The notes beneath the pieces were generated by a model. That model saw only the letters and a program-made list of their open reading frames with translations, was not told the DNA's origin and made no database searches. Shown here piece after piece: positions 2,437-55,752 of a DNA stretch of 64,000 nucleotides (position 1 is its first letter; every line of letters starts with the position of its first letter). The stretch is taken from contig NC_043008.1 in the NCBI RefSeq assembly GCF_006345805.1, forward strand, positions 45,508,001-45,572,000. The letters run 5' to 3'. This DNA is from Octopus sinensis. Taxonomy: Eukaryota. A program made the position numbers and the translations under genes.

Positions 2437-3438
2437 TATCCTTAAATCCTTAATCCTTAAAAATGTTTTAGCCCGAAGGCCGCGGCCATGCTGGGGCACC
2501 ACCGCTGAATGAGCTACACTAGTTTGTGAATCCACCTCTGATACGTGGCACTTGATCAACAAGGGAGTTCGATGCTGCTGCCCGCATCCGTGTCTCCTGT
2601 CGTGAGGTAGGTTCATCTGGGACTCCCAACAAGAAGAGATCCAGTTTAGTTTTAAAGAAACCCACATCCACACCATGTAAGTCTCTCAGGCATTTAGGGA
2701 GGATGTTAAAGAGCTGTGGTCCTCTGAAACCCAAGCTGTTGCAGTATCTGGACCTGTATTTTGATGGTGATGTTGGAATCCTTGGCACCACGCAGCGGCG
2801 CCCCGTTCTGCGGTTGGAGTAACTTTGAATGCCAAAGTTTGGGACAAGACCCTCCAGGATTTTCCAGATGTATATCACTGCATATCTCTCCCGCCTCCGC
2901 TCCAGGAGAAGAGGTTTAATACCTTCAGTCTTTCCCAGTAGCTGACATTTTGCATTGAGACGATTTTCTTTGTGTAGCTTCTCTGAGTTGCTTCGAGTTC
3001 TGCTGTTTGTTTTATATTGTGTGGTGACCAAAGTTGGGAGCAGTAGTCAAGCGGCTGAGGACAAATGTTTTCCATAGGACCATCAGTGTCTCCTTCTCTC
3101 TTGTTCTGAAAGTTCGGAGAATCCATCCAGCTAGCCGTCTGCATTTTATCACCAGATTAGCAATATGCATTTGGAAAGATGCATCATTGCTCATGTCAAT
3201 GCCCAGGTCACGCACTGATTTTGACGCAGGGATTGCAATTCTTCCTGGGCCAGTGTATCCAGTCTTCACGTCATTTACCTTTGTGTGCCAGTAGCGCAGG
3301 GCCTGGAACTTACCTGCATTAAACTGCATGTTGTTGTCCTCAGCCCACCTGTATATTGTGTCCAGCTCATGTTGCAGATGCGCAATATTTTCAGGGTTTT
3401 GTATTGCGTGGGAGACTTTTGTGTCATCTGCATAGCTA
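2437..3438 (-). mobile_element. LINE family B, 5'-truncated (RT C-terminal part + 3' end)
   Basis: Encodes SYADDTKV...MQFNAGKFQ...WILRTFRTRE...LERRRERYAVIYIWKILEGLVPNFG, with frameshifts. 3' tail is (AAGGATT)n, adjoining (TA)n. Confidence 0.92.
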
Positions 3439-4841: not shown

Positions 4842-5967
4842 TTGATTGATTGATTGATTCTGGTTTCAGCTTATGAGCTGTGGCCATGCTGGGGCACCGC
4901 CATTTGGTGTTGCTACTTGGTTTCACTTCACGAAAGCTTTCTAGCAACTGCCATTTGGTGCATGAGAGAGTCCGATGCAGCTGCTCTCATCTGCACCTCC
5001 TGCCGTGAAGTTGGTTCATCTGGGACACCTGACAGGAAGAGATCCAGCTTCATTTTAAAGACATCTGCATCCACCACATGCAGGTCTCTCAGGTTCTTTG
5101 GGAGGATATTGAAGAGCTGTGGGCCTCGGAAGCCCAGGCTATCACAGAATCTTGTCCTACATCTTGATGGCAAGTTTGGAGTCCTAGACACCACGCAGTG
5201 GCGCCCAGTTCTGGCATTTGTGTAACTCTCGATGCCAAAGTTCAGGACACGTCCCTCCAGGATCTTCCAGATGTATATTATGGCATATCTTTCCCGCCTA
5301 CGCTCCAGGGAATATAGTTTTAATCTCTTGAGTATTTCCCAGTAGCTTACATTCTGCATAGAGGCTATCTTCTTCGTGTAGCTACGTTGGATCACCTCGA
5401 GCTCTGTGATCAACTTGACACTGGATGGTGAGCATAACCGAGAGCTGTAGTCAAAGTGGCTTAGGACAAGTGTCCTCCAGAGGACCATCATGGTTTCTTG
5501 TTCTTTTGTTCTAAAGGTTCTGAGGATCCATCCGGCCAGTCGTCTACATTTCATTGCCAATTTAGCAACATGTACACGAAAGGTCGCGTCATCACTCATG
5601 TAAATACCTAGGTCACGCACTGATTGTGCCTCTGGGATTGCTATTCCTCCAGGTCCAGTGTATTCATTGGGTATTGCATTTAGTTTTGCATGCTGATAGT
5701 ATAGAGCTTGAAACGTTTCAACATTGAACTGCATGCTATTCTTTTCGGCCCACTTGTATATTTTGTCTAGCTCACATTGCAGGTGTTTAGTGTCCTCAGG
5801 GTTCTGTATTGCCTGTGAAACTTTTGTATCATCTGCATAACTTGTGATCGTGGCTCTCTGCGTGGCTGAGGGCATGTCTGAGAGGGCCATTATGAACAGT
5901 AGTGGTCCCAGAACAGTGCCCTGCGGAACACCGCTCACTATTTGCGTGTTAATGGAAGTGGCCCCAT
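4842..5967 (-). mobile_element. LINE family A, 5'-truncated (RT C-terminal half + 3' end)
   Basis: ORF 4928-5998 contains [18 protein letters not shown] and LYSLERRRERY. Tail is (AATC)n, followed by (TA)n. Confidence 0.93.
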
Positions 5968-7543
5968 TGGAATCAGAAAGAAGACCAGTACCACACAACG
6001 ATGATGATCTTCCTATTCCAATACCACCAGAAAATGGCCTTCAAATGTCTGACGAAGATGTATTTCCTGAAGAAAATACTACTGCTGTGGAAGAGACCTA
6101 AGAGAATGCAGGTTTCACGATTGAAAATGAAGACGTACCACAGAAATTTTCTGAAGGAGAGTTAAATGATTTAGTTAGAGACTTGTCATTGTCGAAGGAT
6201 AAAGCTGAACTATTAGCATCTCGCCAACAAGAAAAGTGTCTGCTTAAGAAAGATGTTTGTATTACTCATTTCAAGAAGAGAAATCGGGATCTGACTTCAT
6301 GCTTCTCTGTTGATGGATCACTTTGTCTCAGTAATAACACAATTGAGTTATTTCGCTGTTTGTTCCAAGAGCATGTTCCAGCTGAATGGCGCTTATTTAT
6401 TGATTCATCTAAGATAAGCCTTAAGGCAGTAGTACTACACAACGGCAATAAGAAACCATCCATTCCCATAGGACATTCAGTGCACATGAAGCAGTGTTAT
6501 GAAAACATGCAAGTAGACCTCAATGCCATAAAGTATACAAACAGCAGCTAGAAAATATGTGGAGACTTGAAGGTGATTGGAATGTCGATGAGAATGCAAT
6601 CTGGGTGCATGAAATATTGTTACTTTTTATGCTTATGGGACAGTCGTGCAACTAACAAGGACTATGTGCAATCAGAGTGGTCTTTGCGAAAATCATATGA
6701 GCCAGGAGTTTCTAGCCTCCAGAGTAAGCCACTTTTAATCCCAGAAAATGTTCTTTCCCCTCTTCACACAAAACTTGGCCTCATGAAACAATTCGTGAAG
6801 ACATTTGCCAGGAAAAGCTCAAAAGGTTTTGAATATGTGAAAACCAAATTTCCAAAAATCACCGGGGCAAAACTGAAGATCCGCAGATAAAAGAACTCCT
6901 GAAGGACAACCACTTCCTCACAGCACTGGACGAGACTGAGCTTAATGCCTGGGAATCCTTCAAATGGCTTTATGAAACTTTCCTAGTCAACAAGAGAGCT
7001 CTAGAATTTAGAAATAGAGTGAAATGTCTTCTAGACTCTTACGTTGCAATGGGCTGTCGGATGTCACTAAAAGTCCATTTTCTTGATTCACATCTGGACT
7101 TTTTTGCAGAGAACCTTGGAGCAGTATCTTATAAGCAAGGGGAAGCTTTCATCAAGATATTGCATCGATGGAACAACAATCTCAAGGATTTTGGAATGCA
7201 GGAATGTTAGCTAACTACTGTTGGATGTTATACAGGGATGAACCTGAGACAAAACACCATAGAAAGTCAAAATCCCAAAGATTATAAGTTATTATGCATT
7301 TGAGAGTATTCTAACTTATTTGTACAATAAAAAACCATGAAATTATCGTATCTTGTATTCAATATACTTTATATAGACATGCTTTACGTATCATATAAGT
7401 TACAACAGCAGATATAATTAACATGTAAACGTAACATGATAGAGAAAATCGGACTTCAGATTCGTAATCAGCATCCAAAAGTAATCCAGAAAATCAATCA
7501 GCAACTCTAATGGTTAAAGAAATTTTCATTTTGTTGACCAGTG
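5968..7543 (+). mobile_element. Degenerate Chapaev3-like (CMC group) DNA transposon, left end missing
   Basis: Broken ORFs give RPVPH..LPIP, WRLFIDSSKISLKAVVLHNGN..PSIPIGHSVHMK, KYCYFLCLWDSRA, PLHTKLGLMKQFVK, MSLKVHFLDSHLDFF..GAVS. The right end ...ttttgttgaccaGTG is followed by TTA, fitting CAC..GTG termini with a TWA target. Family assignment is from recalled motifs. Confidence 0.7.
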
Positions 7544-11169: not shown

Positions 11170-11927
11170 TATATATACACACACACATTCACTCTCACAC
11201 ATACTCACACATACATGTATCTTTTAAATAATATTGATTGATATACGAGAAATGAAAAATATTAAGTTGTGAGATAATATGAAATATTATTAATGACTGA
11301 TATAATGAGAAAGATAGGAAATAAAGATATAATAGAAGTTACTGTGTTTATATACAACATCAACAACTTGTTATGAAAAGCAATTCTAAAACAATTTAGG
11401 TATTAGAAATTATATAATAGCTATGAGTTCAATTGATATATCGATCAGTATGCAATTCGTCTCTGATTAGATCTCTACTGCGTGCGTTCACTAACGACAG
11501 GGAGAAACGTTTCTAAAGCTTAGTACAGTCTCCCGGGTAAGTGTACGATTTACGCGTTTAGTTATAGATGTAACTAAATTTACGCATTTACCATGTATAA
11601 AGGAAATTACTGCCAGTGATTTAGGGTTCGTACAAGCGTAAATAAAAGAATATGACTCCAAAAAGGTAAATATGTGGTGGAGTGTTAGATGTAAACGTCG
11701 ATATTATATTAGAAAGGAAATGAAACACCAAGTAAAATGCGTACCTATTCCTTCTAACCACGCTCTGATGAACTACACACACATTCACACATATGATGTG
11801 TGTTTTTGCGTGTGTGTGTCCTCGTGTGTACTAATACAGTGTCCTTTCACCAGATCTTGAAAGTTAAATTTGGCAAAGGACACTATACTGATGTGTAGCC
11901 GATGGATGGATGAATGATATATATATA

Positions 11928-12089
11928 GGCGCAGGAGTGGCTGTGTGGTAAGTAGCTTGTTTACCAACCTCATTGTTCCTGGTTCAGTCCCACTGCGTGG
12001 CACCTTGGGCAAGTGTCTTCTACTATAGCCTCGGGCCGACCAAAGCCTTGTGAGTGGATTTGGTAGATGGAAACTGAAAGAAGCCCATC

Positions 12090-12170
<81 letters not shown>

Positions 12171-12337
12171 TGTGTCTGTGTTTGTCCCCCTAGCATTGCT
12201 TGACAACCGTTACTTAGCGGTTCGGCAAAAGAGACCGATAGAATAAGTACTGGGCTTACAAAAGAATAAGTCCCGGGGTCAAGTTGCTCGATTAAAGGCG
12301 GTGCTCCAGCATGGCCGCAGTCAAATGACTGAAACAA

Positions 12338-12342
<5 letters not shown>
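11928..12342 (+). mobile_element. tRNA-derived SINE with CORE-like block, internal (TA)n(TG)n and LINE-like 3' end
   Basis: A box TGGCTGTGTGG, B box GGTTCAGTCCC, and ccttgggcaagtg. Its 3' end ggcggtgctccagcatggccgcagtcaaatgactgaaac matches the LINE-A/B 3' ends. Confidence 0.85.
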
Positions 12343-15584: not shown

Positions 15585-15790
15585 CATCTTTTACTTGTTT
15601 CAGGCATTAAACTGCAGCCACCCTGGGGTACCGCCTTGAAGAGCTTTTTGTCGAATGAACCGCCTTGTTCTAGTTTAAAGCCTAGTGCTTATCCCAACGG
15701 TCTCCTTTGCTGAAATGCTGAGTTACGGGGACAACACCGGTTCTCAAGCGGTGATGGTGGAGAAACATACGCACAAAAACTCGCGCGTGC
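15585..15790 (-). mobile_element. Degenerate 3' half of the same SINE family
   Basis: Reverse complement contains ggcggtaccccagggtggctgcagtttaatgcctgaaacaagtaaaag. Confidence 0.65.
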
Positions 15791-27965: not shown

Positions 27966-29319
27966 TAAAATTTCAAATCGCCTATACAAACAAATTGAAA
28001 GCAGTGAAAATAAAACTGTTGAAAATTGAAAAATGTCTGCAACTCTCCCATGAAAAGGAAAGAGCAGACAAAGAAGCCTGGGCTATAGACAACATAAAAT
28101 CTAACCCCAGAGCTTTCTACAGGTATGCGAAAGAAACAGCTACGGTGAACTGTAGGATAGGGCCACTCCTTGAAAAGGATGGTACACTCATAGGAAAACC
28201 AATGAGGGTAAGTGAAATACTGAATGAGCAATTCAAGAGTGTTTTCACCCCAACCCTTGGGCATTTTCAAATCACCAATCCAATTGACTTCTTTACCACT
28301 ACTGTTCATAATGGCCCTCTCAGACATGCCCTCAGCCACGCAGAGAGCCACGATCACAAGTTATGCAGATGATACAAAAGTTTCACAGGCAATACAGAAC
28401 CCTGAGGACACTAAACGCCTGCAATGTGAGCTGGACAAAATATACAAGTGGGCTGAAAAGAATAGCATGCAGTTCAATGCTGAAAAGTTTCAAGCTTTAT
28501 ACTATCAGCATGCAAAACTGAATGCAATACCCAATGAATACACTGAACCCGGAGGAATTGCAATCCCAGTGGCACAATCAGTGCGTGACCTGGGTATTTA
28601 CTTGAGTGATGACGCAACCGTTCGTGTACATGTTGCTAAATTGGCAATGAAATGTAGGCGACTGGCCGGGTGGATTCTCAGAACCTTTAGAACAAAAGAA
28701 CAAGAAACCATGATGGTCCTCTGGAGGACACTTGTCCTAAGCCACTTTGACTATTGCTCTCAGCTATGGTCACCATCCAGTGTCAAGTTGATCACAGAAC
28801 CTGAGGCGATCCAACGTAGCTACACGAAGAAGATAGCCTCTGTGCAGAATATAAGCTACTGGGAAAGACTCAAGAGATTAAAACTCTATTCCTTGGAGCG
28901 TAGGCGAGAAAGATATGCCATAATATACATCTGGAAGATCCTGGAGGGACTTGTCCCAAACTTTGGCATCGAGAGTTACACAAATGCCAGAACTGGGCGC
29001 CACTGCGTGGTGCCTAGGACTCCAAATTTGCCATCAAGATGTAGGACAAGATACTGTGATAGCCTGGGCTTCCGAGGCCCACAGCTCTTCAATATCCTCC
29101 CGAAGAAACTAAGAGACATGCATGGGGTGGATGCAGAAGTTTTAAAATGAAACTGGATCTCTTCTTGTCAGGTATCCCAGATGAACCAACTTCACGACAG
29201 GAGGTGCAGATGAGGGCAGCTGCATCGAACTCTCTCATGCACCAAATGGCAGTTGCTAAAAAGCGGTGCCCCAGCATGGCCCCAGCTCATAAGCTGAAAC
29301 TAGAATCAATCAATCAATC
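27966..29319 (+). mobile_element. LINE family A with internal deletions
   Basis: RT C-terminal ORF 28224-29150 (YADD). About 683 bp is missing at 28295-28300 relative to the 29340 copy. Tail is gaatcaatcaatca. Confidence 0.92.
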
Positions 29320-29339
29320 ATATGTATATATATATACAG

Positions 29340-31803
29340 ATGTAGGCAAGTTTAAAGACAGCCTTATAAAAATAGAAGAAGTTCTAGTCACACTAGAACA
29401 GCACATAAGTGTACTTCTCATGGGAGACTTCAACCTGCCCAATGTCAGATGACCCGAGGGCCTTTCTCTCCCAGGAATGACACGATGTGAACGGGGACAG
29501 GCGAGGTCCCTCCTGAACCTCATCAACACCCTGTACATGGAGCAAGTAATACTCCAACCAACCAGGGCAGGTAACATACTGGATCTCTGCTTCACAAATA
29601 ATATGGATCTCATCCATAATGTGAAACTGACACCGACACTACTCTCGGATCACAACATGGTAGAGCTGACTATGTACGGGCCAAAGGAAAGCATGGACAT
29701 GCAGCCTACAAGAAACCTTCAGAATCTTTCCAGCTTGAACTTCCATAAGGCAAACTGGAAACAAATTGAGAAAGAGATCCTCAAACAAAACTGGCCTGAA
29801 TGTCTCTCCTCGCCGGACATCGACATGATGCTTCAACAATTCATGTCTGTAATGCAAGCCATATGCTTGTGTCCCAGAGAGAAAGGCCACTGTACACAAG
29901 AACAAAATCCCCAGAGAGAGGAAAATTTTAATGAGACGGCGTTCAAAAATTTCAAATCGCCTAAACAAACAAATTGAAAGCAGTGAAAAGTCCCGCCTGT
30001 AAATAAAACTGTTGGAAATTGAAAAATGTCTTCAACTCTCCCATGAAAATGAAAGAGCAGACAAAGAAGCCTGGGCTAGAGACAACATAAAATCTAACCC
30101 CAGAGCTTTCTACAGGTATGCCAAAGAAACAGCTACGGTGCACTGTAGGATAGGGCCACTCCTCGAAAAGGATGGCACACTCACAGGAAAACCAATGAGG
30201 GTAAGTGAAATACAGAATGAGCAATTCAAGAGCGTTTTCAATCCACCCCTTGGGCATTTCCAAATCAGCAATCCAACTGACTTCTTTACCACTGCAGATA
30301 TAAAATCAGAGGCGGTGACGATAAATTACATCGATATAAAGGAAGTCGATGTAATAAACGCTATAGATGAAATGAAAACAGACTCAGCTATTGGCCCCTA
30401 TGGATTCCCGTCAATCCTCCTAAAAGTATGTAAGAGAGTCCTAGCAAGACCACTGCAGTTCCTCTTTCAGAGCTTCCTTGCAGCTGGCAAACTTCCAAGA
30501 ATACTTAAGGAAGGTAAAATATGCCCTATTCATAAAGGAGGTAGCAGAGCGGAGGCCAAGAACTACAGATCTATCTATCTCACCTCACACATCAGCAAGG
30601 TCATGGAACGAATAGTCAGAAGGAAACTAATCACCTTCCTTGAAGAAAATGACTTGCTGCCTGACACCCAACATGGTTTCCGACCAGGAAGAAGCTGCTT
30701 AACTCAGCTACTACAACACTATGACTGGGTGCTGAAACAACTGCTCAACCACTCAAATGTGGAAGTCATATATCTCGACTTTGCAAAGGCCTTTGATAAA
30801 GTCGATCATGGAATGATATGTCACAAACTGCGTCATCTTGGCATAGTTGGAAAACTTGGAGAATGGCTTCATGACTTTCTGAAGAATAGAAGTCAGGTGG
30901 TAGCAGCCAATGGGGCCACTTCCATTAACCCGCAAATATTGAGCGGTGTTCCGCAGGGCACTGTTTTGGGACCACTACTGTTCATAATGGCCCTCTCAGA
31001 CATGCCCTCAGCCACGCAGAGAGCCACGATCACAAGTTATGCAGATGATACAAAAGTTTCACAGGCAATACAGAACCCTGAAGACACTAAGCACTGCAAT
31101 GTGAGCTGGACGAATATACAAGTGGGCTGAAAAGATAGCATGCAGTTCAATGCTGAAAAGTTTCAAGCTTTATTACTATCGCATGCAAAACTGAATGCAA
31201 ATACCCAATGATTACACTGGACCCGAAGGGATTGCAATCCCAGAGGCACAGTCAGTGCGTGTGACTGGGTATTCACATGAGTGATGACGCGACCTTTCAT
31301 GTAAATGTTGCTAAACTGACAATGAAATGTAGACGGCTGGCTGTTGGATTCTTAGAACCTTTAGAACAAGAGAACAAGAAACCATGATGGTCCTCTGGAA
31401 GACACTTGTCCTAAGCCACTTTGACTATTGCTCTCAGCTATGGTCACCATCCAGTGTCAAGTTGATCACAGAACTTGAGGCGGTCCAACGAAGCTACACG
31501 AAGAAGATAGCCTCTGTGCAGCATATGAGCTACTGGGAAAGACTCAAGAGATTAAAACTCTATTCCCTGGAGCGTAGGCGAGAGAGTTGTCGTAATATAT
31601 ATCTGGAAGATCCTGGAAGTCTTGTCCCAGACTTGGCATCCGAGAGTCACAAAATGCAGCCAGAACCGGACGCCACTGCGTAGTACCAAGGACTCCAAAT
31701 TTGCCATCAAGATGTAGGACAAGATATTGTGATAGCCTGGGCTTCAGAGGCCCACAGATTCAATATGCTCCCGAAGAACCTGAGGGACCTACATGGTGTA
31801 GAT
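29340..31803 (+). mobile_element. LINE family A (partial APE + RT), lacking both ends, frameshifted
   Basis: [21 protein letters not shown] 30012-31130 with YLDFAKAFDKVDH, GVPQGTVLGP and YADD. It ends abruptly into (TA)n. Confidence 0.93.
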
Positions 31804-33889: not shown

Positions 33890-35690
33890 ACTTGACTTTG
33901 AGACTCAGTCTCAACGTATGGTCACCACTATTCACCCTACGTGATACCCCCTCACCACTATCCACACCGCCCTTGCCAGAGCACGGTCCGTGGACCGTGT
34001 ATCTGCTCTCTCTCCCCGAACCCGCCCTGTAGTCTCCCGCCTCCCTTTTCCCCTCATTACCACCCCACGACCCTACGTCTCCAACGCCACCATTCGTCGA
34101 AGCTTTCCGTCATCTCCAGTCCGACCGTCCACTTCACACCTCTTCCCTAACCGACCCCTCCCCTCTTTCAAACGAGCCCACAACCTTCGAGACTTTTGGT
34201 CCATAGCTCCTTCCCTGACCCTACCTCCCAACCCGGCTCGTTCCCCTGCTCCCGCCCACGTTGCCGCACTTGCCCTTACCTCTCCAACACCACCCGCCTC
34301 ACTAGCACCACCATCGACCCTATCCCATCATCCACTCCTTCACCTGCACCTCCAGCAATATTATCTATTGCATCTCTTGCTCTCTCTGCAATTCCTTGTA
34401 CATCGGACAAACGGGACGCCGCTTGGCTGACCGGTTCGCAGAACACCTTCGTGACATCCACCTTGCGAACGACACACCGGTCTCACGCCATTTCCGCTCC
34501 ACCGGTCACTCCTTGCAACACCTATCTGTGTTCGGTTTGTCCTTACACAGAGGCCATCCGGATTCCCGTTTGCGCCGTGAACAGGAATTAATCTTCTCTC
34601 TTCGCTCTTATACGCCATTTGGTCTCACAACTCTCCCCCCCTCCTCCTCTAACCCCCCTCTCCCCCCCTCCTCACCTATCCTTTCTCCCCCCGACCCCTA
34701 CTTTCTTCAGTCCCTTCACCTTTCACCCCTACTCCCCTTCCCTTCTTCCCTCTTTCTCCCTCCCTCTTCCCCTTCCCTCTGCTCCCTCACTCCCTCTTCC
34801 CCTTCCTCTCTTCTCCCCCTTCCCCTCTTTCCTCCTTCATCCCCCTCCTCAACTTCCTTCTCCCCCATCGTCTCCTCTTCCCCTTCTCCTCCCCCTCTTC
34901 TTCCCCTCCCCCCATTCTCTCCCCCCTCTTCTCCCCCTCCCCCTCTTCTCCTCACTTCCCTCTTCCCCCCCTCCCCCTCTTCTCCTCACTGACACCACAT
35001 GACTTTACACATCACATCACATATGATGTGCCATACTAATACACACACCAACTAATACATACGAATACGTACTAATACATACTAGTACATACTAATACTT
35101 ACACCAACCCTATACATACACACGTCCAGACCCCGCATACGCACTTATACTCCTCTCACACACACACACACACACCTATACATACCAATACGTACTAATA
35201 CATACTAATACATACTAATACATACACCAACCCCATACATACGCACGTCCAGACCAATCTTACGCACTAATACTCTCTCATACACACACACACACACACA
35301 CACCACACACACCCGATACATACTAATAAATTACACCAACCCTATACATACACAATCCAGACCCCTCCCACGCACTTTTAGCTGGTCACTCAACCCTTTT
35401 ATCAACCCTATTATCTCCCCTTATTTCGCTCTCGCGTCTCGTGTTTGATCTTTGACCTCTGGCCGAAATCAGATCGCCATGTTGATTCGTTAGCTACTGC
35501 ACGCATTTTTTTTTTCTCTCCTTCTTTCTGTGTTTTTCTCTCTCTGTGTATCTTTCTGTTGAAGAGCGTAGGCTCGAAACGTTAAAGACTTGTTTTATTT
35601 ATATTTCCTGAGCGCCATACTAATACAATTGTTCGTTTGTCTTCCACCTGCCTTCGTCTTTTGTTTATTTTCATAAAGCTTCCCGTTACA
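33890..35690 (+). mobile_element. 5'-truncated Penelope-like element (GIY-YIG end, C/T-rich tract, pLTR)
   Basis: CSRPRCRTCPY and YIGQTGRRLADRFAEHLRDI...REQELIFSL. Near-identical to 48920-50410. Confidence 0.9.
35551..35588 (+). ncRNA. Minimal hammerhead-like ribozyme (core CUGUUGA, A6U variant) in the PLE pLTR
   Basis: tcttt-CTGTTGA-a-gagc gtag gctc-GAAAC-GTT-aaaga. Stem I tcttt/aaaga, stem II gagc/gctc, palindromic stem III AACGTT. A damaged copy lies at about 50255-50288. Confidence 0.65.
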
Positions 35691-35974: not shown

Positions 35975-38900
35975 GATTTTGATTTGATTTTGATTTTCCA
36001 GTTTCAGCTAATGAGCTGTGGCCATGCTGGGGCACCGCCATTTGGTTTGCTACACGGTTTTACCTCACGGAAGCTTTTTAGCAAACGCCATCTGATGCAT
36101 GAGAGAGTTCGATGCAGCTGCCCTCATCTGCGCCTCCTGCCGTGAAGTTGGTTCATCCGGGACACCTGACAGGAAGAGATCCACTCCTACTTTAAAGACA
36201 TCCGCATCTACACCATGCAGGTCCCTCAGGTTCTTCGGGAGGATATTGAAGAGCCGTGGGCCTCTGAAGCCCAGGCTATCACAATATCTTGTCCTACATC
36301 TTGATGGCAAATTTGGAGTCCTTGGTACTACGCAGTGGTGTCCGGTTCTGGCATTTGTGTGACTCTCGATGCCAAAGTCTGGGATAAGACCTTCCAGGAT
36401 CTTCCAGATATATATTACGGCATATCTTTCTCGCCTACGCTCCAGGGAATAGAGTTTTAATCTCTTGTGTCTCTCCCAGTAGCTCATATGCTTCGTGTAG
36501 CTTCGTTGGATCGCCTCAAGTTCTGTGATCAACTTGACACTGGATGGTGACCATAGCTGAGAGCAATAGTCTAAGTGGCTTAGGACAAGTGTCTTCCAGA
36601 GGACCATCATGGTTTCTTGTTCTCTTGTTCTAAAGGTTCTAAGAATCCAGCCAGCCAGCCGTCTACATTTTATTGTCAGTTTAGCAACATGTACATGAAA
36701 GGTCGCGTCATCACTAATGTGAATACCCAGGTCACGCACTGATTGTGCCTCTGGGATTGCAATCCCTCCGGGTCCAGTGTATTCATTGGGTATTGCATTC
36801 AGTTTTGCATGCTGATAGTATAAAGCTTGAAACTTTTCAGCATTGAACTGCATGCTATTCTTTTCAGCCCACTTGTATATTCGTCAGCTCACATTGCAGG
36901 TGCTTAGTGTCTTCAGGGTTCTGTATTGCCTGTGAAACTTTTGTATCATCTGCATAACTTGTGATCGTGGCTCTCTGCGTGGCTGAGGGCATGTCTGAGA
37001 GGGCCATTATGAACAGTAGTGGTCCCAAAACAGTGCCCTGCGGAACACCGCTCACTATTTGCGTGCTAATGGAAATGGCCCCATTGGCTGCTACCACCTG
37101 ACTTCTATTCTTCAGAAAGTCATGAAGCCATTCTCCTAGATTTCCAACTATGCCAAGATTACGCAGTTTGTGACATATCATTCCATGATCGACTTTATCG
37201 AAGGCCTTTGCGAAGTCGAGATATATGACTTCCACATTAGAGTGGTTGAGCAGTTGTTTCAGCACCCAGTCATAATGCTGCAGGAGCTGAGTTAAGCAGC
37301 TTCTTCCTGGTCGGAAACCATGTTGGGTGTCAGGCAGCAAGTCATTTTCTTCAAGGAAGGTGATTAGTTTCCTTCTGATTATTCGTTCCATGACCTTGCT
37401 GATGTGTGAGGTGAGAGAGATAGGTCTGGTCTGTAGTTCTTGGCCTCCGCTCTGCTACCTCCTTTATGAATAGGGCATATTTTACCTTCCTTCAGTTTCT
37501 TGGAAGTTTGCCAGCTGCAAGGAAGCTCTGAAAGAGGAACTGCAGTGGTCTTGCTAGGACTCTCTTACATACTTTTAGGAGGATTGCCGGGAATCCATAG
37601 GGGCCAATAGCTGAGTCTGTTTTCATTTCATCTATAGCCTTTATTACATCGTCTTCCTTTATATCGATGTAATTTATCGTCGCCGCCTCTGATTCTATAT
37701 CTGCAGTGGTAAAGAAGTCAGTTGGATTGCTGATTTGGAAATGCCCAAGGGGTGGATTGAAAACACTCTTGAATTGTTCATTCAGTATTACACTTACCCT
37801 CATTGGTTTTCCTGTGTGTGTGCCATCCTTTTCGAGGAGTGGCCCTATCCTACAGTGCACCGTAGCTGTTTCTTTGGCATACCGTAGAAAGCTCTGGGGG
37901 TAGTTTTTATGTTGTCTATAGCCCAGGCTTCTTTGTCTGCTCTTTCCTTTTCATGGGAGTTGCAGACAATTTTCAATTTCCAACAGTTTTATTTTCAGGC
38001 GGGACATTTCACTGCTTTCAATTTGTTTGTTTAGGCGATTTGAAATTTTTGTACGCCGTCTCATTAAAATTTTCCTCTCTCTGGGGATTTTGTTCTTGTG
38101 TACAGTGGCCTTTCTCTCTGGGACACAAGCATATGGCTTGCATTACAGACATGAATTGTTGAAGCATCATGTCGATGTCCGGTGAGGAGAGACATTCAGG
38201 CCAGTTTTGCTTGAGGATCTCTTTCTCAATTTGTTTCCAGTTTGCCTTATTGAAGTTCAAGCTGGAAAGTTTCTGAGGGTTTCTTGTAGGCCTCATGTCC
38301 TTGCTCTCTTTTGGCCCGTACATGGTCAGCTCTACCATGTTGTGATCCGAGAGTAGTGTCGGTGTTACTTTCACATTATGGATGAGATCCATATTATTTG
38401 TGAAGCAGAGATCCAGTGTGTTACCTGCCCTGGTTGGTTGGAGTATTACTTGCTCCATGTACAGGGTGTTGATGAGGTTCAGGAGGGACCTCGCCTGTCC
38501 TCGTTCACATCTTGTCATTCCCGGGAGAGAAAGGCCCTCGGGCCATCTGACATTGGGTAGATTGAAGTCTCCCATGAGAAGTACACTCATGTGTTGTTCT
38601 AATGTGATTAGAACTTCTATTTTTAAAAGGCAGTCCTCGAACTTGCCCATATGGCTTAGGGCATCTGGAGGGCGATATGTAGCACATACAACTACATCAA
38701 GTTGCCGTATGTGTACAATTAGTGTGTCACACACCGAGTTTGAGTATGACAAAAGGACCTGGGGTGTGAGGTCCTCACGGATGTACATAGCAACTCCTCC
38801 ATGACTCCTTTCTTTTCTGTCGGTCCGTAGTACAACACACTGTGGTATGTGTAATTCCGCATCCGCTATGTCCGGTTTCAGGTGCGTCTCCGTGAGTGCT

Positions 38901-39143: not shown

Positions 39144-40661
39144 AATCCTTATCCTTAAATCCTTAAAAATGTTTTAGCCCGAAGGCCGCGGCCATGCTGG
39201 GGCACCACCGCTGAATGAGCACACTAGTTTGTGAATCCACCTCTGATACGTGGCACTTGATCAACAAGGGAGTTCGATGCTGCTGCCCGCATCCGCGTCT
39301 CCTGTCGTGAGGTAGGCTCATCTGGGACTCCCAACAGAAGAGATCCAGTTTAGTGTTTAAAGAAACCCACATCCACACCATGTAAGTTCTCTCAGGCATT
39401 TAGGGGGGGGGGTGTTAAAGAGCTGTGGTCCTCTGAACCAAAGCTGTTGCAGTATCTGGACCTGTATTTTGATGGTGATGTTGGAATCCTTGGCACCACG
39501 CAGCGGCGCCCCGTTCTGCGGTTGGAGTAACTTTGAATGCCAAAGTTTGGGACAAGACCCTCCAGGATTTTCCAGATGTATATCACTGCATATCTCTCCC
39601 GCCTCCGCTCCAGGGAGAAGAGGTTTAATACCTTCAGTCTTTCCCAGTAGCTGATATTTTGCATTGAGACGAGTTTCTTTGTGTAGCTTCTCTGAATTGC
39701 TTCGAGTTCTGCTGTTAGTTTTATATTGTGTGGTGACCAAAGTTGGGAGCAGTAGTCCAAGCGGCTGAGGACGAATGTTTTCCATAGGACCATCACTGTC
39801 TCCTTCTCTCTTGTTCTGAAAGTACGGAGAATCCATCCAGCTAGCCGTCTGCATTTTATCACCAGATTAGCAATATGCATTTGGAAAGATGCATCATTGC
39901 TCATGTGAATGCCCAGGTCACGCACCGATTTTGACTCAGGGATTGCAATTCTTATTGGGCCAGTGTATCCAATCTTCACGTCATTTACCTTTGTGTGCCA
40001 ATAGCGCAGGGCCTGGAACTTACCTGCATTAAACTGCATGTTGTTGTCCTCAGCCCACCTGTATATTGTGTCCAGCTCATGTTGCAGATGCGCAATATTT
40101 TCAGGGTTTTGTATTGCGTGGGAGACTTTTGTGTCATCTGCATAGCTAGCAAGGGTGGTCATCGTAGCAACTGAAGGCATGTCTGAAAGGGCCGCTATGA
40201 ACATCAGTGGCCCCAAGACAGTGCCCTGTGGGACACCGCTTGTTATTTGCGTTTCCTTGGAGGTGGCTCCATTGCTCGCAACTGCCTGTTTTCTGTCTTT
40301 TAGGAAGTTGTGCAGCCACTCTCCAAGTTTTCCGCCTATGTCAAGACCACATAGTTTGTGACAGATCATACGATGATCGACTTTATAAAAGGCTTTTGCA
40401 AAGTCGAGATATATTACCTAGTCGAAATCCATGCTGGGAGTCAGAGAGCAAGAACTATTTGCTCCATGGAAGAGGCATTTGTGAGATGGAGCAGGGACTC
40501 CACCTGTGCCTGCTGATGGTATGTCATCCCTGGGAGCATCTGCCCCCCAGGCCATTCCACATTGGGGAGGTTAAAGTCACCCATGAAGAATACACTGTTG
40601 TGCTGTTCAAGGTTGGTGAGGACTTCTATTTTTGTTAGGCAGTCTTCAAACATGCCTGAGT
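39144..40661 (-). mobile_element. LINE family B with two internal deletions
   Basis: RT ORF 39392-40369 and APE piece 40453-40660. Junctions at about 40417 and 40452 relative to the 41590 copy. Tail is (AAGGAT)n. Confidence 0.92.
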
Positions 40662-40664
40662 ATG

Positions 40665-40762
<98 letters not shown>

Positions 40763-40840
40763 CATATATATATACATACATTATATATATATACATATAT
40801 ATATATATGTATATATATTATATTATATATATATTTATAC

Positions 40841-40871
<31 letters not shown>

Positions 40872-41042
40872 CATATATACATATATATATATATATACAT
40901 ATGTATATATATATATATACATATATATATACATATATACATATATATATACATATATATATATATACCTATATATATACATATATATATATACATATAT
41001 ATATACATATACATCTATATATATATACATATATATATATAC

Positions 41043-41073
<31 letters not shown>

Positions 41074-41490
41074 CATATATATATACGTATATATATACAT
41101 ATATATATATACATATATATATATATAATACATATATATATATAATATATATATATATATATAATATATATATATATATATACACACACCTATATATATA
41201 TAGATATATATATAGATAGATTATATATAGATATATATATAGATAGATAGATTTATATATATATGTATATATAGATATAGATATATAGATATATATATAT
41301 AGCTATATAGATATATATAGATATATGTATATATAGAAATATATATACATATAGGTATATATATATATAGATATATACCTATATGTATATATATTATATA
41401 TATACATAACTACATATACACATATATGTATATATATTCATATAATATATACATATGTACGTATATATATGTATACATACATACATATGC

Positions 41491-41555
<65 letters not shown>

Positions 41556-41589
41556 TATATATAGATCATATATATATATATATATATAT

Positions 41590-44225
41590 ATCCTTAATCC
41601 TTAAACTCCTAAAAAATGTTCTATCCCGAGGGCCGCGGCCATGCTGGGCACCACCGCTGAATGAGCTACACTAGTTTGTGAATCCACCTCTGATACGTGG
41701 CACTTGATCAACAAGGGAGTTCGATACTGCTGCCCGCATCCGAGTCTCCTGTCGTGAGGTAGTTTCATCTGGGACTCCCAACAAGAAGAGATCTAGTTTA
41801 GTTTTAAAGAAACTCACATCCACACCATGTAAGTCTCTCAGGCATTTAGGAAGGATGTTAAAGAGCTGTGGTTCTCTGAAACCCAAGCTGTTGCAGTATC
41901 TGGACCTGTATTTTGATGGTGATGTTGGAATCCTTGGCACCATGCAGTGGCGCCTCGTTCTGCGTTTGGGGTAACTTTGAATGCCAAAGTTTGGGACAAG
42001 ACCCTCCAGGATTTTCCAGATGTATATCACCGCATATCTCTCCCGACTCCGCTCTAGGGAGAAGAAGTTTAATACCTTCAGTCTTCCCCAGTAGCTGATA
42101 TATTGCATTGAGACGATTTTCTTTGTGTAGCTTCTCTGAATTGCTTTGAGTTCTGCTGTTAGTTTTATATTGTGTGGTGACCATAGCTGGGAGCAGTAGT
42201 CCAAGCGGCTGAGGACGAATGTTTTCCATAGGACCATCACTGTCTCCTTCTCTCTTGTTCTGAAAGTTCGGAGAATCCATCCAGATAGCTGTCTGCATTT
42301 TATCACCAGATTAGCAATATGCACTTGGAAAGATGCATCATTGCTCATTTGAATGCCCAGGTCACGCACCGATTTTGACTCAGGGATTGCAATTCTTATT
42401 GGGCCAGTGTATCCAGTCTTCACGTCATTTACCTTTGTGTGCCAGTAGCGCAGGGCCTGGAACTTACCTGCATTAAACTGCATGTTGTTGTCCTCAGCCC
42501 ACCTGTATATTGTGTCCAGCTCATGTTGAAGATGCGCAATATTTTGTATTGCGTGGGAGACTTTTGTGTCATCTGCATAGCTAGCAAGGGTGGTCATCGT
42601 AGCAACTGAAAGGGCCACTATGAACATCAGTGGCCCCAAGACAGTGCCCTGTGGGACACCGCTTGTTATTTGCGTTTCCTTGGAGGTGGCTCCATTGCTC
42701 ACAACTGCTTGTTTTCTGTCTTTTAGGAAGTTGTGCACCCACTCTCCAAGTTTTCCGCCTATGCCGAGACCACGCAGTTTGTAACAGATCATACCATGGT
42801 CGACTTTATCAAAGGCTTTTGTAAAGTCAAGTTATATTACATCCACATTTGAGCCATTTTGTAGCTTTTTCAACACCCAGTCATAGTGTTGCAGGAGCTG
42901 TGTTAGCCAGCCTCTACCTGGTCGAAATCCATGCTGGGTGTCAGAGAGCAAGTCATTTTCTTCAAGGAACATGATTAGTTTCTTACGGACTATTCATTCC
43001 ATGACTTTGCTGATGCGTGAGGTAAGAGTGATAGGCCTATAATTTTTAGCATCTGCTCTGCTACCTCCCTTATGGATAGGGCATATTACCCCCTCTTTCA
43101 ATTTGACTGGGAGCTTACCACTTGCAAGAAAGCTCTGAAAAAGAAGCTGTAGCGGTTTTGCAAGTGCTCGTTTGCACGATTTGAGAAGGATCGCTGGGAA
43201 TCCATCAGGTCCAGCAGCTGAGTTTGTGTCAATCTCATCTATGGCTAGTGTGATATCATCATCTCCGATGTTGATGTACTCAACTTTTGCCTCTTTGGCC
43301 GCAGGTAACGTGGCAACGAATTCTTCTGGGTTGTTTACTTGCCTGTGTCCTAGAGGTGTAGTGAACAGACTTTGGAACTGTTCGTTCAGTATTTCACTTA
43401 TCCTCGTGGGATTTCCTGTGAGAGAGCCATCTTTTTGGAAGAGAGGTCCTATTCTCTGGTGCACTGTGGCTGTCTCTTTGGCAAACTTAAAGAAAGCTTT
43501 AGGGTTTGATTTTATACTTTCTATTACCCAAGCTTCTTTATCTACTCTCTCCTTTTCATGGGACTGATGTAGACTTTTCTCAGTTTCCATTAGCATTCTT
43601 TCGAGCCGAGACTTCTCAGCACTTTTGGTGTGCTTGCTCAGGCGGTTCGCAAACCTTGTCCGTCGTCTCATAAGAATCCTCCTTTCTCTAGGGATCCTGT
43701 TTTTGTTCTTGTGTGTTCTGGCCCTGCACACTGGGACATATTTGTCACATATGGCTTGTATTATGGACATGAAGTGTTTGTGTTTCATGTTCCATACATA
43801 GACAGCTCTATTATGTTGTGATCCGAGATCTTTGTCGGCATCACATTAACATTATGGATAATATCCATATTGTTTGTGAAGTATAGCTCCAGTATATTAT
43901 CTGCCCTTGTTGGTTGCAGAACTATTTGCTCCATGAAAGAGGCATTTGTGAGATGGAGCAGGGACTCCACCTGTGCGTACTGATGGTGTGTCATCCCTGG
44001 GAGTTCTGCCCCCCCCCCCTGGCCATTCCACATTGGGGAGGTTAAAGTCACCCATGAAGAATACACTGTTGTGTTGTTCAAGGTTGGTGAGGACTTCTCC
44101 TATTTTTGTTAGGTAATCTTCAAACATGCCTGAGTGTTTTGAGGCAACTGGTGGGCGATATGTAGTGCACATGACGATATTCAGTTGTCTTATGTGTACA
44201 ATTTGAGTTTCACATACTGAGTTTT
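41590..44225 (-). mobile_element. LINE family B (partial APE + RT + 3' end)
   Basis: ORFs 43897-44172 (YRPP, GDFN), 43785-44081 (SDHN), 42994-43788 and 41671-42792 (GVPQG, YADD). Confidence 0.94.
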
Positions 44226-45049: not shown

Positions 45050-46119
45050 ATACTGTCTTAGGTCCGCTACTCTTCATAATCTACATAAACGAACTTTCCA
45101 GTGTCGTACATTACTGCAAAGTGAAAATATTTGCTGATGACACCAAGCTCCAGTAAATGGTCAATAAAGAAGCGGACCGAACTCAACTCCAGTCTGATCT
45201 ATATGCTGTGAGTCAATGAGCAGACAGAAACAAAATGCAACTGAACGAGGGAAAATTGGAGCTGATGCATTTTGGAAGAAATTCCTCACTGAAACAGCCA
45301 TACTCTCTTCCTTCAGGGGAACTGCTCACAGCCTCTAACAACATCTGAGACCTAGGTGTAATTGTTGATGACGATCTCAGTTGGAGTGCATATATCAACA
45401 AGAAGGTCGATATAGCTCGTACAATGAGTTCCTGGATCTTAAGAACTTTCCGGTCCAGAGAACAAGGTGTCATCATATCACTTTTCTCCTCCTTTGTACG
45501 GTCACACCTCGAATACTGCTGCCCACTGTGGTCTCCCCATACAAGACAAAACATCTCGAGGATTGAATCACCCCAGAGAGCACTCACTAAACGAATTGAA
45601 GGCATGGCTGCTCTCGATTATTGGGATCGACTTAAAGCCTTGAAACTCTACCCTCTCCAGCGTCGCTGTGAGCAGTACATCATTTGTACGATGTGGAGAA
45701 TATACCGCCACCTTTGCCCAAACGACCTGAACATAAGCCTTCAAGGTCCAACCAAGACTGGGACGACGGGCTATACGTCCCCTGCCCAATTCAAGATCAC
45801 AGCATACATATACACTACAACATAATTTCTTTTCCTCAACAGGCCCTGCCCTATTTAAAATTGTCCCGAAAGAGATCAAAGAGGAAAAGGATCCCATCAA
45901 CTTTAAACGGAGTCTGGATAGATTCCTTCAAAGAATATCAGATAAGCCACCAATAATTGGATACAACTCACCCAACAAAAACTCGCTACTTGAATGGACC
46001 ATAAGCAAAACTTGACTTAAACAGGATTCAAATAATCCTATCAGGTGGTGCTATTAAGTTAGACATGGCCTGGACCAATCATTGGTCGAAACACATCTAA
46101 GTTTATCTAAGTCTAAGTT
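45050..46119 (+). mobile_element. LINE family C, 5'-truncated, with stops
   Basis: [45 protein letters not shown]. Tail is (TCTAAG)n-like, followed by (TA)n. Confidence 0.88.
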
Positions 46120-48313: not shown

Positions 48314-48339
48314 CATATATATGTATACATATAATACAT

Positions 48340-50411
48340 AAGCCTCTATACCGTTATCCCTCACCACGAAGGACTGCAGGCACTTCAGCACTTTCTCGAC
48401 CTCCGCTCCAACCCTGAACCTGACACCTCCACACTCATTCGTCTGGCCGAACTTGTCCTTACTCTTAACTGCTTCTCGTTCACGGGCGAGTTCTACCATC
48501 AGATCTCGGGAGTGGCCATGGGAACGCGAATGGGCCCCAACTATGCGAACCTGTTCGTTGGCTATGTTGAGGCCCAAATGTTCTCTAATTTCACTGGTCC
48601 CACTCCTGAACTATATGGTCGTTACATTGACGACATTATCGGTGCCACCTCACTCTCCCGTGAACATCTAGATTCCCTCCTCTCTTTCGTTCAATCTTTC
48701 CATCCAGCCCTCCACTTCACTTCCACTATCTCCAACACCTCTGTCTCCTTCCTCGACATTTCGGTTAGCATTCTTCACTCCACTCTTACCACCTCCATTC
48801 ACTACAATCACACAGACTCACACTCATACCTCAACTTCTCTTCCTCCCACCCAGAACACACCAAGCTTTCCATCCCCTATTCCCAATTCCTCCGTCTACG
48901 TAGGCTCTGTAGTGACGACCATGACTTTGAGACTCAGTCTCAACGTATGGCTCACCACTTCATCCTACGTGGATACCCCCTCACCACTATCCACACCGCC
49001 CTTGCCAGAGCACGTTCCGTGGACCGTGTATCTGCTCTCTCTCCCCGAACCCGCCCTGTAGTCTCCCGCCTCCCTTTGCCCCTCACTTACCACCCCACGA
49101 CCCTACCTCTCCAACGCACCATTCTTCGAGCTTTCCGTCATCTCCAGTCCGACCCGTCCACTTCACACCTCTTCCCTAACCGACCCCTCCCCTCTTTCAA
49201 ACGAGCCCATAACCTTCGAGACCTTTTGGTCCATAGCTCCTTCCCTGACCCTACCTCCCACCGCTCTCCCCTGCTCCCGCCCACGTGCCGCACTTGCCCT
49301 TACCTCTCCAAACCACCCTCCTTACTGGCACCCATCATCGACCCTATCGCATCATCAACTCCTTCACCTGCATCTCCAGCAATATTATCTATTGCGTCTC
49401 TTGCTCTCTCTGCCATTCCCTGTACATCGGACAAACGGCAAGCCGCTTGGCTGACCGGTTCGCGGAACACCTTCGTAACATCCGCCTTGCGAACGACACA
49501 CCGGTCTCACGCCATTTCCGCTCCACCGGTCACTCCTTGCAACACCTGTCTGTTTTCGGTTTGTCCTTACACAGAGGCCATCCGGATTCCCGTTTGCGCC
49601 GTGAACAGGAATTAATCTTCTCTCTTCGCTCTTATACGCCATTTGGTCTCAACTCTCCCCCCTCCTCATCTAACCCCCTCCCCCCTCCTCATCTAACACC
49701 CTCTCCCCCTCCTCGTCTAACCTCCCCCCACCCATACTTCTCTTCAGTCCTTCATCCTTTCACCCCTATTCCTCTTCCCTCTTTCTCCCTCCGTCCTTCT
49801 TCCTTCTTCCCCTTCCCTCTTCCTCTCTGCTCCCTCACTCCCCTTCTCTCACTCCCCCTCTCCCTCTACCTCCTCCTCCTCTCCTTCCTTCTCCCCATTC
49901 TCTCTCCTCCTCTTCTCCTCTCCTTCCCCCTCCTCTTCTCCCCCTTCTTTCTCCCCCCTCCCCATCTTCCCTCATCTCCTCTCTCTACACTACACCATAC
50001 GACTTTACACATCACATCATATATACATACACACGTCCAGACCTCTCATACGCACTAATACTCTCTCATACACACACACACACACACTCTTATGTTGGAG
50101 CGTGGTCATTTAACCCTATTATCTCCCCTAATTTCGCTCTTGCGTCTCAAGTTTGATCTTTGACTTCTGGCCGAAATCAGATCGCCATGTTGATTCGTTA
50201 GCCTCTGCACGCATTTTTTTTTCTCTCCTTCTTTCTGTGTTTTTTCTCTGTGTATCTTTCTGTTGAAGAGCGTAGGCTCGAAGCGTTTTATTTATATTTC
50301 CTGAGCGCCATACTAATACAATTGTTTGTTTGTATTCCACCTGCCTTCGTCTTTTATTTATTTCCTTAAACCTGCCTCGTCTTTTATCTATATTCATAAA
50401 GCTTCCCGTTA
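48340..50411 (+). mobile_element. Penelope-like element, 5'-truncated (RT + GIY-YIG + pLTR)
   Basis: SLYT.IPH, GVAMGTRMGPNYANLFVG, RYIDDI, VSFLDI, SIPYSQFLRLRRLCS, then NIIYCVSC..C..LYIGQTASRLADRFAEH. (TA)n lies on both sides. Confidence 0.95.
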
Positions 50412-53022: not shown

Positions 53023-53263
53023 TTGATTGATTGATTGATTGATTGATTATAGTTTCAGCTTATGAGCTGTGGCCATGCTGGGGCACCGCCATTTTGTGTT
53101 GCTACTTGGTTTCACTTCATGGAGGCTTTCTAGCAACTGTTATTTGGTGCATGAGAGAGTTCGATGCAGCTGCCCTCATCTGCCGTGAAGTTGGTTCATC
53201 TGGGACACCTGACAGGAAGAGATCCAGCTTCATTTTAAAGACATCTGTATCCACCCCATGCAG
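53023..53263 (-). mobile_element. LINE family A 3'-terminal ~240 bp within (TA)n
   Basis: (TTGA)n tail, then the conserved 3' end and [16 protein letters not shown]. Confidence 0.9.
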
Positions 53264-54829: not shown

Positions 54830-55752
54830 AATCCTTAAATCCTTAAAATGTTTTAGCCCGAAGGCCGCGGCCATGCTGGGGCACCCCCGCTGAATGAAGC
54901 TACACTAGTTTGTGAATCCACCTCTGATACGTGGCACTTGATCACAATGGAGTTCGATGCTGCTGCCCGCATCCGCGTCTCCTGTCGTGAGGTAGGTTCA
55001 TCTGGGACTCCCAACAAAAAGAGATCCAGTTTAGTTTTAAAGATACCCACATCCACACCATGTAAGTCTCTCAGGCATTTAGGGAGGATGTTAAAGAGCT
55101 GTGGTCCTCTGAAACCCAAGCTGTTGCAGTATCTGGACCTGTATTTTGATGGTGATGTTGGAATCCTTGGCACCACGCAGCGGCGCCCCGTTCTGCGGTT
55201 GGAGTAACTTTAAATGCCAAAGTTTGGGACAAGACCCTCCAGGATTTTCCAGATGTATATCACTGCATATCTCTCCCGCCTCTGCTCTAGGGAGAAGAGG
55301 CTTAATACCTTCAGTCTTTCCCAGTAGCTGATATTTTGCATTGAGATGATTTTCTTCGTGTAGCTTCTCTGAATTGCTTCGAGTTCTGCTGTTTGTCTTA
55401 TATTGTGTGGTGACCAAAGTTGGGAGCAGTAGTCCAAGCGGCTGAGGACAAATGTTTTCCATAGGACCATCAGTGTCTCCTTCTCTCTTGTTCTGAAAGT
55501 TCGGAGAATCCATCCAGCTAGCCGTCTGCATTTTATCACCAGATTAGCAATATGCATTTGGAAAGATGCATCATTGCTGATATCAATGCCCAGGTCACGC
55601 ACTGATTTTGACTCAAGGATTGCAATTCTTCCTGGGCCAGTGTATCCAGTCTTCACGTCATTTACCTTTGTGTGCCAATAGCGCAGGGCCTGGAACTTAC
55701 ATGCATTAAACTGCATGTTGTTGTCCTCAGCCCACCTGTATATTGTGTCCAG

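Follow-up and report, generated by a model that had tools for sequence, protein, structure and literature searches.

LINEs and SINEs with common stem-loop tails have long been known in principle, and the tRNA-derived octopus SINEs OK, OR1 and OR2 were reportedly described by Ohshima and Okada in 1994. No partner LINE for these SINEs was found in the available parts of PMC3747384, PMC3531059 and PMC4824008. In zebrafish L2 elements (ZfL2), the ORF2 protein binds the 3' stem-loop, and the loop of L2 elements sets the specificity of recognition, according to the accessible sections of Hayashi et al. (2014; PMC4176376). In UnaL2/UnaSINE and ZfL2-1/ZfL2-2, as in the octopus module described here, the 3' stem-loop stands before a short tandem repeat; there, ORF2 recognizes the stem in a general and the loop in a specific manner, whereas binding in octopus is putative. 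UnaL2 and ZfL2 belong to the L2 clade and have one stem-loop, whereas the octopus elements appear to be of CR1 type and carry two abutting hairpins followed by AAAC (comparison with the same sections of PMC4176376).

Among molluscs, the CR1-group LINE CR1-14_CGi and the SINEs BivaV-SINE2 and BivaCORE-SINE1 have a common structured 3' tail with compensatory changes, as in hairpin 2 of octopus (Nishihara et al., 2016; PMC4824008, available text). CR1-14_CGi was classed as CR1-Zenon, and no pile-up of 5' ends was found described in that text. Unlike the octopus module, CR1-14_CGi-type tails are AT-rich (tails as given in supplement 4 of PMC11481361). The bivalve HCD SINE-LINE pairs, including Amar_SINE-2_CORE with CR1, have LINE-derived tails of 35-61 bases and, as here, tail swapping and several partners per head; their tails differ in sequence from the octopus module, with 0 occurrences for cephalopods (Martelossi et al., 2024; PMC11481361, available portion). 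In the parts of the following sources at hand, LINE-SINE pairs are tabulated (PMC3747384), tail exchange is described (PMC5786205), and surveys of octopus repeats give counts of CR1 and SINE families, with no mention of the pairing reported below (PMC13282606, PMC10294476, PMC4758252, PMC3531059). Our literature search, which covered sources other than Repbase, Dfam and subscription papers, found no report of this LINE-SINE pairing or of a pile-up of 5' ends. What appears new here, within the scope of that search, is the pairing of a SINE with the family LINE-D and the pile-up; the common-tail principle was already known.

Here, we analysed a 64-kb window (the whole stretch of octopus DNA under study) together with the genome around it, and identified a 39-base module as the common 3' end of several LINE families and two SINE families. 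It is composed of hairpin 1 (three pairs, a G-G mismatch and four pairs) and hairpin 2, separated by a 0-2-base linker, and ends in AAAC; in both LINEs and SINEs, a terminus of short tandem repeats follows. The 16-base core of the module has 161,273 exact matches in the 2.72-Gb genome versus 0 for a reversed control. A loose descriptor of the module matched 227 times in 1.33 Mb of fetched DNA, largely selected for these elements, versus 2 times in the same DNA reversed. Within the window, a covariance model trained on 15 natural modules, which themselves match by construction, listed 13 copies (E <=0.0022): six LINE-A, four LINE-B, one LINE-C and two SINE ends. An earlier note on this DNA had quoted one 3' end for the SINE and for each of the three LINE families; all four are present, with coordinates that were 1-2 bases off, and the corrected ends are 12297-12335(+) for the SINE, 4863-4901(-) for LINE-A, 2465-2503(-) for LINE-B and 46044-46092(+) for LINE-C. 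The features of the window are as follows:

11927 to 12342, + strand: tRNA-type SINE copy with box A/B-like head, internal (AT)n(GT)n, 3' module and short tail
12297 to 12316, + strand: SINE hairpin 1, with 3 pairs, G-G mismatch, 4 pairs and 4-base loop; near-invariant between families
12318 to 12331, + strand: SINE hairpin 2, with 5 pairs and 4-base loop; covarying stem, family-specific loop
12332 to 12342, + strand: invariant AAAC, then start of the tail common to the SINE and LINE-D
4863 to 4901, - strand: LINE-A module, then (AATC)n
4931 to 6040, - strand: LINE-A ORF2, C-terminal part (RT), of a 5'-truncated copy
2100 to 2138, + strand: LINE-A module
1878 to 1916, - strand: LINE-A module
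29262 to 29300, + strand: LINE-A module with a short deletion upstream
36001 to 36039, - strand: LINE-A3 module with its own tail; type also carried by the second SINE family
53052 to 53090, - strand: LINE-A module
2465 to 2503, - strand: LINE-B module with UUCG loop
39171 to 39209, - strand: LINE-B module
39395 to 40417, - strand: RT part of LINE-B ORF2
41618 to 41655, - strand: LINE-B module, decayed
54850 to 54888, - strand: LINE-B module
46044 to 46092, + strand: LINE-C module; hairpin 1 longer with a bulged A, hairpin 2 longer
45349 to 45822, + strand: C-terminal fragment of LINE-C ORF2
15597 to 15635, - strand: SINE module, decayed, from an old interrupted copy

At 39267-42697, 28295-31803 and 1875-2141 of the window, LINE fragments are arranged head to head and nested within one another's (AT)n flanks, and some form inverted pairs. 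A third hairpin is predicted directly upstream of the LINE-C module (46022-46038, + strand). Open frames at 34306-34989 and 48335-50055 (+ strand) presumably encode Penelope-like RT and GIY-YIG-like proteins. A PDB search gave no match, Rfam gave none near the gathering score, and viral contigs provided no useful match; a metagenome scan returned distant CR1/L2-type elements, none with the module among the 80 loci listed.

Near-full copies of LINE-A, B and C contain ORF1 plus an ORF2 of 1036-1039 aa, and a further family absent from the window, LINE-D, has a 1090-aa frame. The ORF2 proteins of A, B and C possess APE endonuclease and RT domains (PF14529, PF03372, PF00078), a CR1-clade feature here, and LINE-D is 62-65% identical to A/B. 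Protein identity amounts to 71% between A and B, 62-63% between A and D, 64-65% between B and D, and 37-39% between C and the others. In the best phylogenetic tree (30 rows), A, B, C and D together with other proteins form a 99/99 lineage inside a 100/99 group of CR1-motif proteins, apart from the L2-like rows; the clade labels come from motifs, without named reference elements, and CR1, CR1-Zenon and other sub-clades are not distinguished. A quick tree of 79 rows also separates this lineage from the L2-like rows. L2-type proteins are characterized by the C-terminal motif LHWL, which is absent from A, B, C and D; all four have an SLxRR motif. The best reading of these sequences is that LINE-A, B, C and D are of CR1 type and not of L2 type. 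The earlier note drew on L2-clade RTs for comparison; an L2-clade partner is disfavoured by both tree and motif, although a tree that joins the lineage to the L2-like rows was not formally rejected (AU test, p=0.061).

Protein searches gave no clade names and a single named relative, from Argonauta hians (61%). Weak Myb/SANT-like matches and a CCCH zinc finger were observed in ORF1 of A, B and C (L121:3266-4198, L124:3441-4229 and L129:3561-4343), of which only the CCCH match of L129 passes the Pfam cut-off. We found no LINE ORF1 with this combination in the literature, and no usable Atlas match for ORF1. ORF2 and the end of ORF1 overlap, and no Met stands at the start of the ORF2 open frame.

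Each module, when folded alone, is predicted to form the two hairpins. The fold z-scores are -4.36 for the SINE, -3.37 for A, -3.10 for C, -2.82 for D, -3.39 for C2 and -0.59 for B; for LINE-B, 50 of 200 shuffles folded equally well, and in a 116-base context its hairpin 2 is lost from the MFE structure. All 11 folds retain hairpin 1 in their MFE structure. In an alignment of 15 rows, from which RNAalifold returns the same two helices, two-sided changes occur in four of the five pairs of hairpin 2 (13 cells, which represent a few events only, as the rows are related). The covariation score of hairpin 2 is 0.305 versus 0.179 when shuffled (0/500 shuffles as high) and <=0.081 when the alignment is slid, and related sequences can exceed the shuffle control without structure. 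Its outer pair is broken in five of the 15 rows, namely B and the four from C. At the two inner pairs of hairpin 2, three paired haplotypes account for 72 of the 89 standard-length modules in 864 kb of unselected DNA. In hairpin 1, five of the six counted pairs are invariant and the sixth changes on one side only (C-G to U-G), with no two-sided change in the octopus rows of this alignment. The double hairpin had been described in the earlier note as covarying, with pairing kept while sequence changes. This holds for hairpin 2, but not for hairpin 1, whose support comes from the paired insertion by which LINE-C lengthens it. As to the tails quoted there, (AATC)n is confirmed for A, and those of B and C consist of 7-10-base units close to the ones given.

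A possible distant relative, L379 (JBCCLN010000406.1), was identified by a pattern scan of prokaryote genomes as a LINE fragment in a Bacteroidota MAG, where it is likely a eukaryotic contamination. It is 45% identical to LINE-A over 200 aa and lies between C and A/B/D in the 30-row tree. Its tandem tail is directly preceded by two hairpins: in the first, the base triplet is unchanged but the upper helix differs, and a single linker base separates it from the second, after which comes a purine-rich spacer (fold z -2.26). A layout descriptor, written after this single sequence had been seen, fits A, B, C, C2, D, the SINE and L379, and none of 35 other CR1/L2-type 3' regions or 2000 shuffles. 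The covariance model did not detect L379.

The SINE copy in the window, which we take to be a member of the OK family, is 416 bases long and non-coding. Boxes A and B of its head match by a loose motif of our own, with no tRNA found by ARAGORN and no tRNA match in Rfam. Only seven tail bases are present in this copy before (AT)n, and in most other copies the tail continues as AAGTAAAAGAG repeats. The SINE-type haplotype was observed in 53 of the 89 unselected modules. Comparison with the LINEs revealed that homology starts at the first base of hairpin 1. With LINE-D, the SINE is identical at 33/39 module bases and 12/12 of the next bases versus 4/20 upstream; the corresponding module and tail values are 30/39 and 4/12 for LINE-A and 29/39 and 6/12 for LINE-B. 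In assembled contigs of four public runs, many short pieces show likeness to LINE-D starting at the first bases of the module, which is preceded by SINE-like loose ends. The octopus elements have the features of a stringent LINE/SINE pair, as far as sequence can tell: homology restricted to the 3' end, a stem-loop with apparent compensatory changes (hairpin 2) and a tandem-repeat terminus.

Judging from these matches, LINE-D appears to be the best partner of the SINE, and A, B and C, with poorer matches in both module and tail, were rejected for this role. LINE-D, or a near ancestor of it, is the likely source of the RT that copied the SINE in trans. The two differ at six of the 39 module bases, including two bases of the hairpin-2 loop and one of the hairpin-1 loop, and LINE-D has only 436 anchored copies versus tens of thousands or more for the SINE; because the loops differ and LINE-D is rare, an extinct sister of LINE-D may be the true partner that did most of the copying. 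A pattern search for a LINE with precisely the hairpin 2 of the SINE, requiring non-SINE bases before it, found only 134 places. One SINE-type copy, L550, has the hairpin-2 loop of LINE-D and is possibly an intermediate or a recombinant of the two. At L174:3597-3830, the SINE 3' end including the module occurs in tandem repeats.

In a second SINE family (L154, L013), another head is joined to a module of LINE-A3 type, with 37/39 identity to LINE-A3 in the module and 11/12 in the tail. The head-module junction exists in 397 exact copies, and all 12 fetched loci have the same module and tail type; the head itself has other tails in 42 of 44 matches. This family takes the LINE-A-type module at the same border as the first SINE does, and the module was likely captured at least twice, at one and the same border. 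At L154:9406-9640 and in 42 other matches, one SINE head was observed with at least five different 3' bodies or tails, the module among them.

We also examined where LINE copies begin, using copies sampled by a 3' anchor from the first listed places (samples L380-L581). Counted from the first base of hairpin 1, the 5' end falls between -5 and +6 in 20/50 LINE-A, 16/50 LINE-B and 9/40 LINE-D copies. Together, 45 of 140 sampled A/B/D copies, about a third, begin no more than about six bases from the 5' border of hairpin 1 and comprise the module alone (module-only copies); the next 60 bases contain the start of only one of 140 (none for A, one for B, none for D). A uniform spread would place about 0.6 ends at the border for A and for B (p 3e-27 and 4e-19). 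These border counts keep every copy, including one A and one B copy that are module tandem repeats and two D copies 1.5 kb apart. Ends inside the module occur in 1/50 A, 6/50 B, 6/40 D and 3/50 C copies, those of A/B/D including a deletion, a near-duplicate pair and one SINE-type copy. The pile-up is weak in LINE-C (3/50 at the border), where two copies start at +29/+30, just 5' of the third hairpin; apparent LINE-C peaks at +37, +45 and +75 were rejected as subfamily indels, which vanish when several references are used. Among SINE-type ends, only 1 of 58 is module-only (counted by eye) versus 36 of 100 for A and B together (Fisher p=1e-7). None of the copies in the window is module-only, and a non-simple candidate for a target-site duplication was found in only 1 of 36 module-only copies.

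The copies are located in AT-rich microsatellites such as (TA)n. (AT)4 occurs within 45 bases 3' of the copy in 22/50 A, 31/50 B, 28/50 C, 29/40 D and 11/31 SINE cases (background 6.4%), and in the 5' flanks of 8/32 A and 16/36 B copies (background 4.5%), which suggests a preference of insertion target.

Several explanations may be considered for the module itself. The fold could lack any function, with the likeness left over from common descent or from recombination of 3' ends, since A, B and D are close relatives and C could have gained its end by recombination. We consider this very improbable: the module is kept between families while upstream sequence and tails are unrelated, exactly this piece was taken by two SINE families, and the changes in hairpin 2 come in pairs. 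It is also improbable, if less so, that the module is required but hairpin 1 is read as sequence or refolded on the protein, leaving hairpin 2 as the only true stem. The near-invariance of the hairpin 1 pairs is what such a reading predicts; however, this hairpin is found in the MFE of every fold, is lengthened by a paired insertion in LINE-C, retains its base triplet with an altered upper helix in L379, and has 5' ends clustered at its base. Position, hairpin-2 covariation, homology borders and analogy support the earlier proposal that the SINE borrowed an RT-recognition tail, with binding being putative. We think it highly probable that the 39-49-base module, found at the end of every family of one CR1-type LINE lineage and of two SINE families, is an RNA handle that would be bound by ORF2 before target-primed reverse transcription (TPRT).

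With regard to the pile-up, we give about an even chance to an origin of the module-only copies by 5'-to-3' trimming of LINE mRNA down to a protected module, which is favoured because Pol III SINE RNA would escape trimming. Abortive initiation with host repair would be the main rival: RT aborts just past the module as it lets go of this RNA anchor, and host repair seals the cDNA, with no trimming at all. 5' ends are indeed found inside the module and then nearly vanish, and 53BP1-shieldin-CST favours severely truncated R2 insertions (review, PMC13708176, available part). However, a related RT likely copies the SINE, which is hardly ever module-only, and an RT-intrinsic stop should affect SINE and LINEs alike; we therefore regard aborted copying as rather unlikely, with a clearly smaller chance than trimming. 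A simple stop before structure does not fit, because the ends fall on the 5' side of the hairpin. There is little probability that the module-only copies represent a self-propagating mini-element with few sources and read-through transcription. Loop variants are skewed in its favour, the loop of 18/29 longer A copies being present in only 5/20 module-only A copies, but the 5' ends are spread across about 11 bases, and this holds also for B and D, in which AT-rich flanks cannot mimic the upstream bases; moreover, the flanks are mostly unrelated, and the same peak is seen in three families and in several subfamilies.

Taking the RNA handle and mRNA trimming together, the LINE ORF2 protein would bind the module and start target-primed reverse transcription from the short tandem tail. 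Hairpin 1 and AAAC would be the recognition part common to the whole lineage, while the hairpin-2 loop and the tail may drift from family to family. LINE-D or a close ancestor would copy the SINE in trans. LINE mRNA trimmed 5'-to-3' to the protein-protected module would give rise to module-only copies, and Pol III RNAs might capture such short module templates by template switching, thereby forming new SINEs. A broader proposal, which we hold only tentatively and at somewhat less than even chances, is that the pile-up is a base-resolution fossil footprint of ORF2, that trimmed modules of 50-60 bases were inserted by the thousands and captured as SINEs, and that the layout is ancestral beyond cephalopods. 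If this were true, module fragments would found new SINE families, at least twice here, and a broad and little-described sub-lineage of CR1 that reaches beyond cephalopods would have had the two-hairpin layout from its ancestor.

It is likely that the octopus module is a functional recognition tail of a familiar kind, in a CR1-type lineage, with one unusual and measurable feature. A likely engine can now be named for a very abundant SINE of the octopus genome, and a minimal recognition signal of about 50 bases is predicted for a CR1-type RT with intact 1,000-aa frames. The presence of the pile-up in LINEs and not in the SINE makes RNA decay versus RT drop-off testable as the cause of 5' truncation, and it also bears on why SINE tails start exactly at the recognition element.
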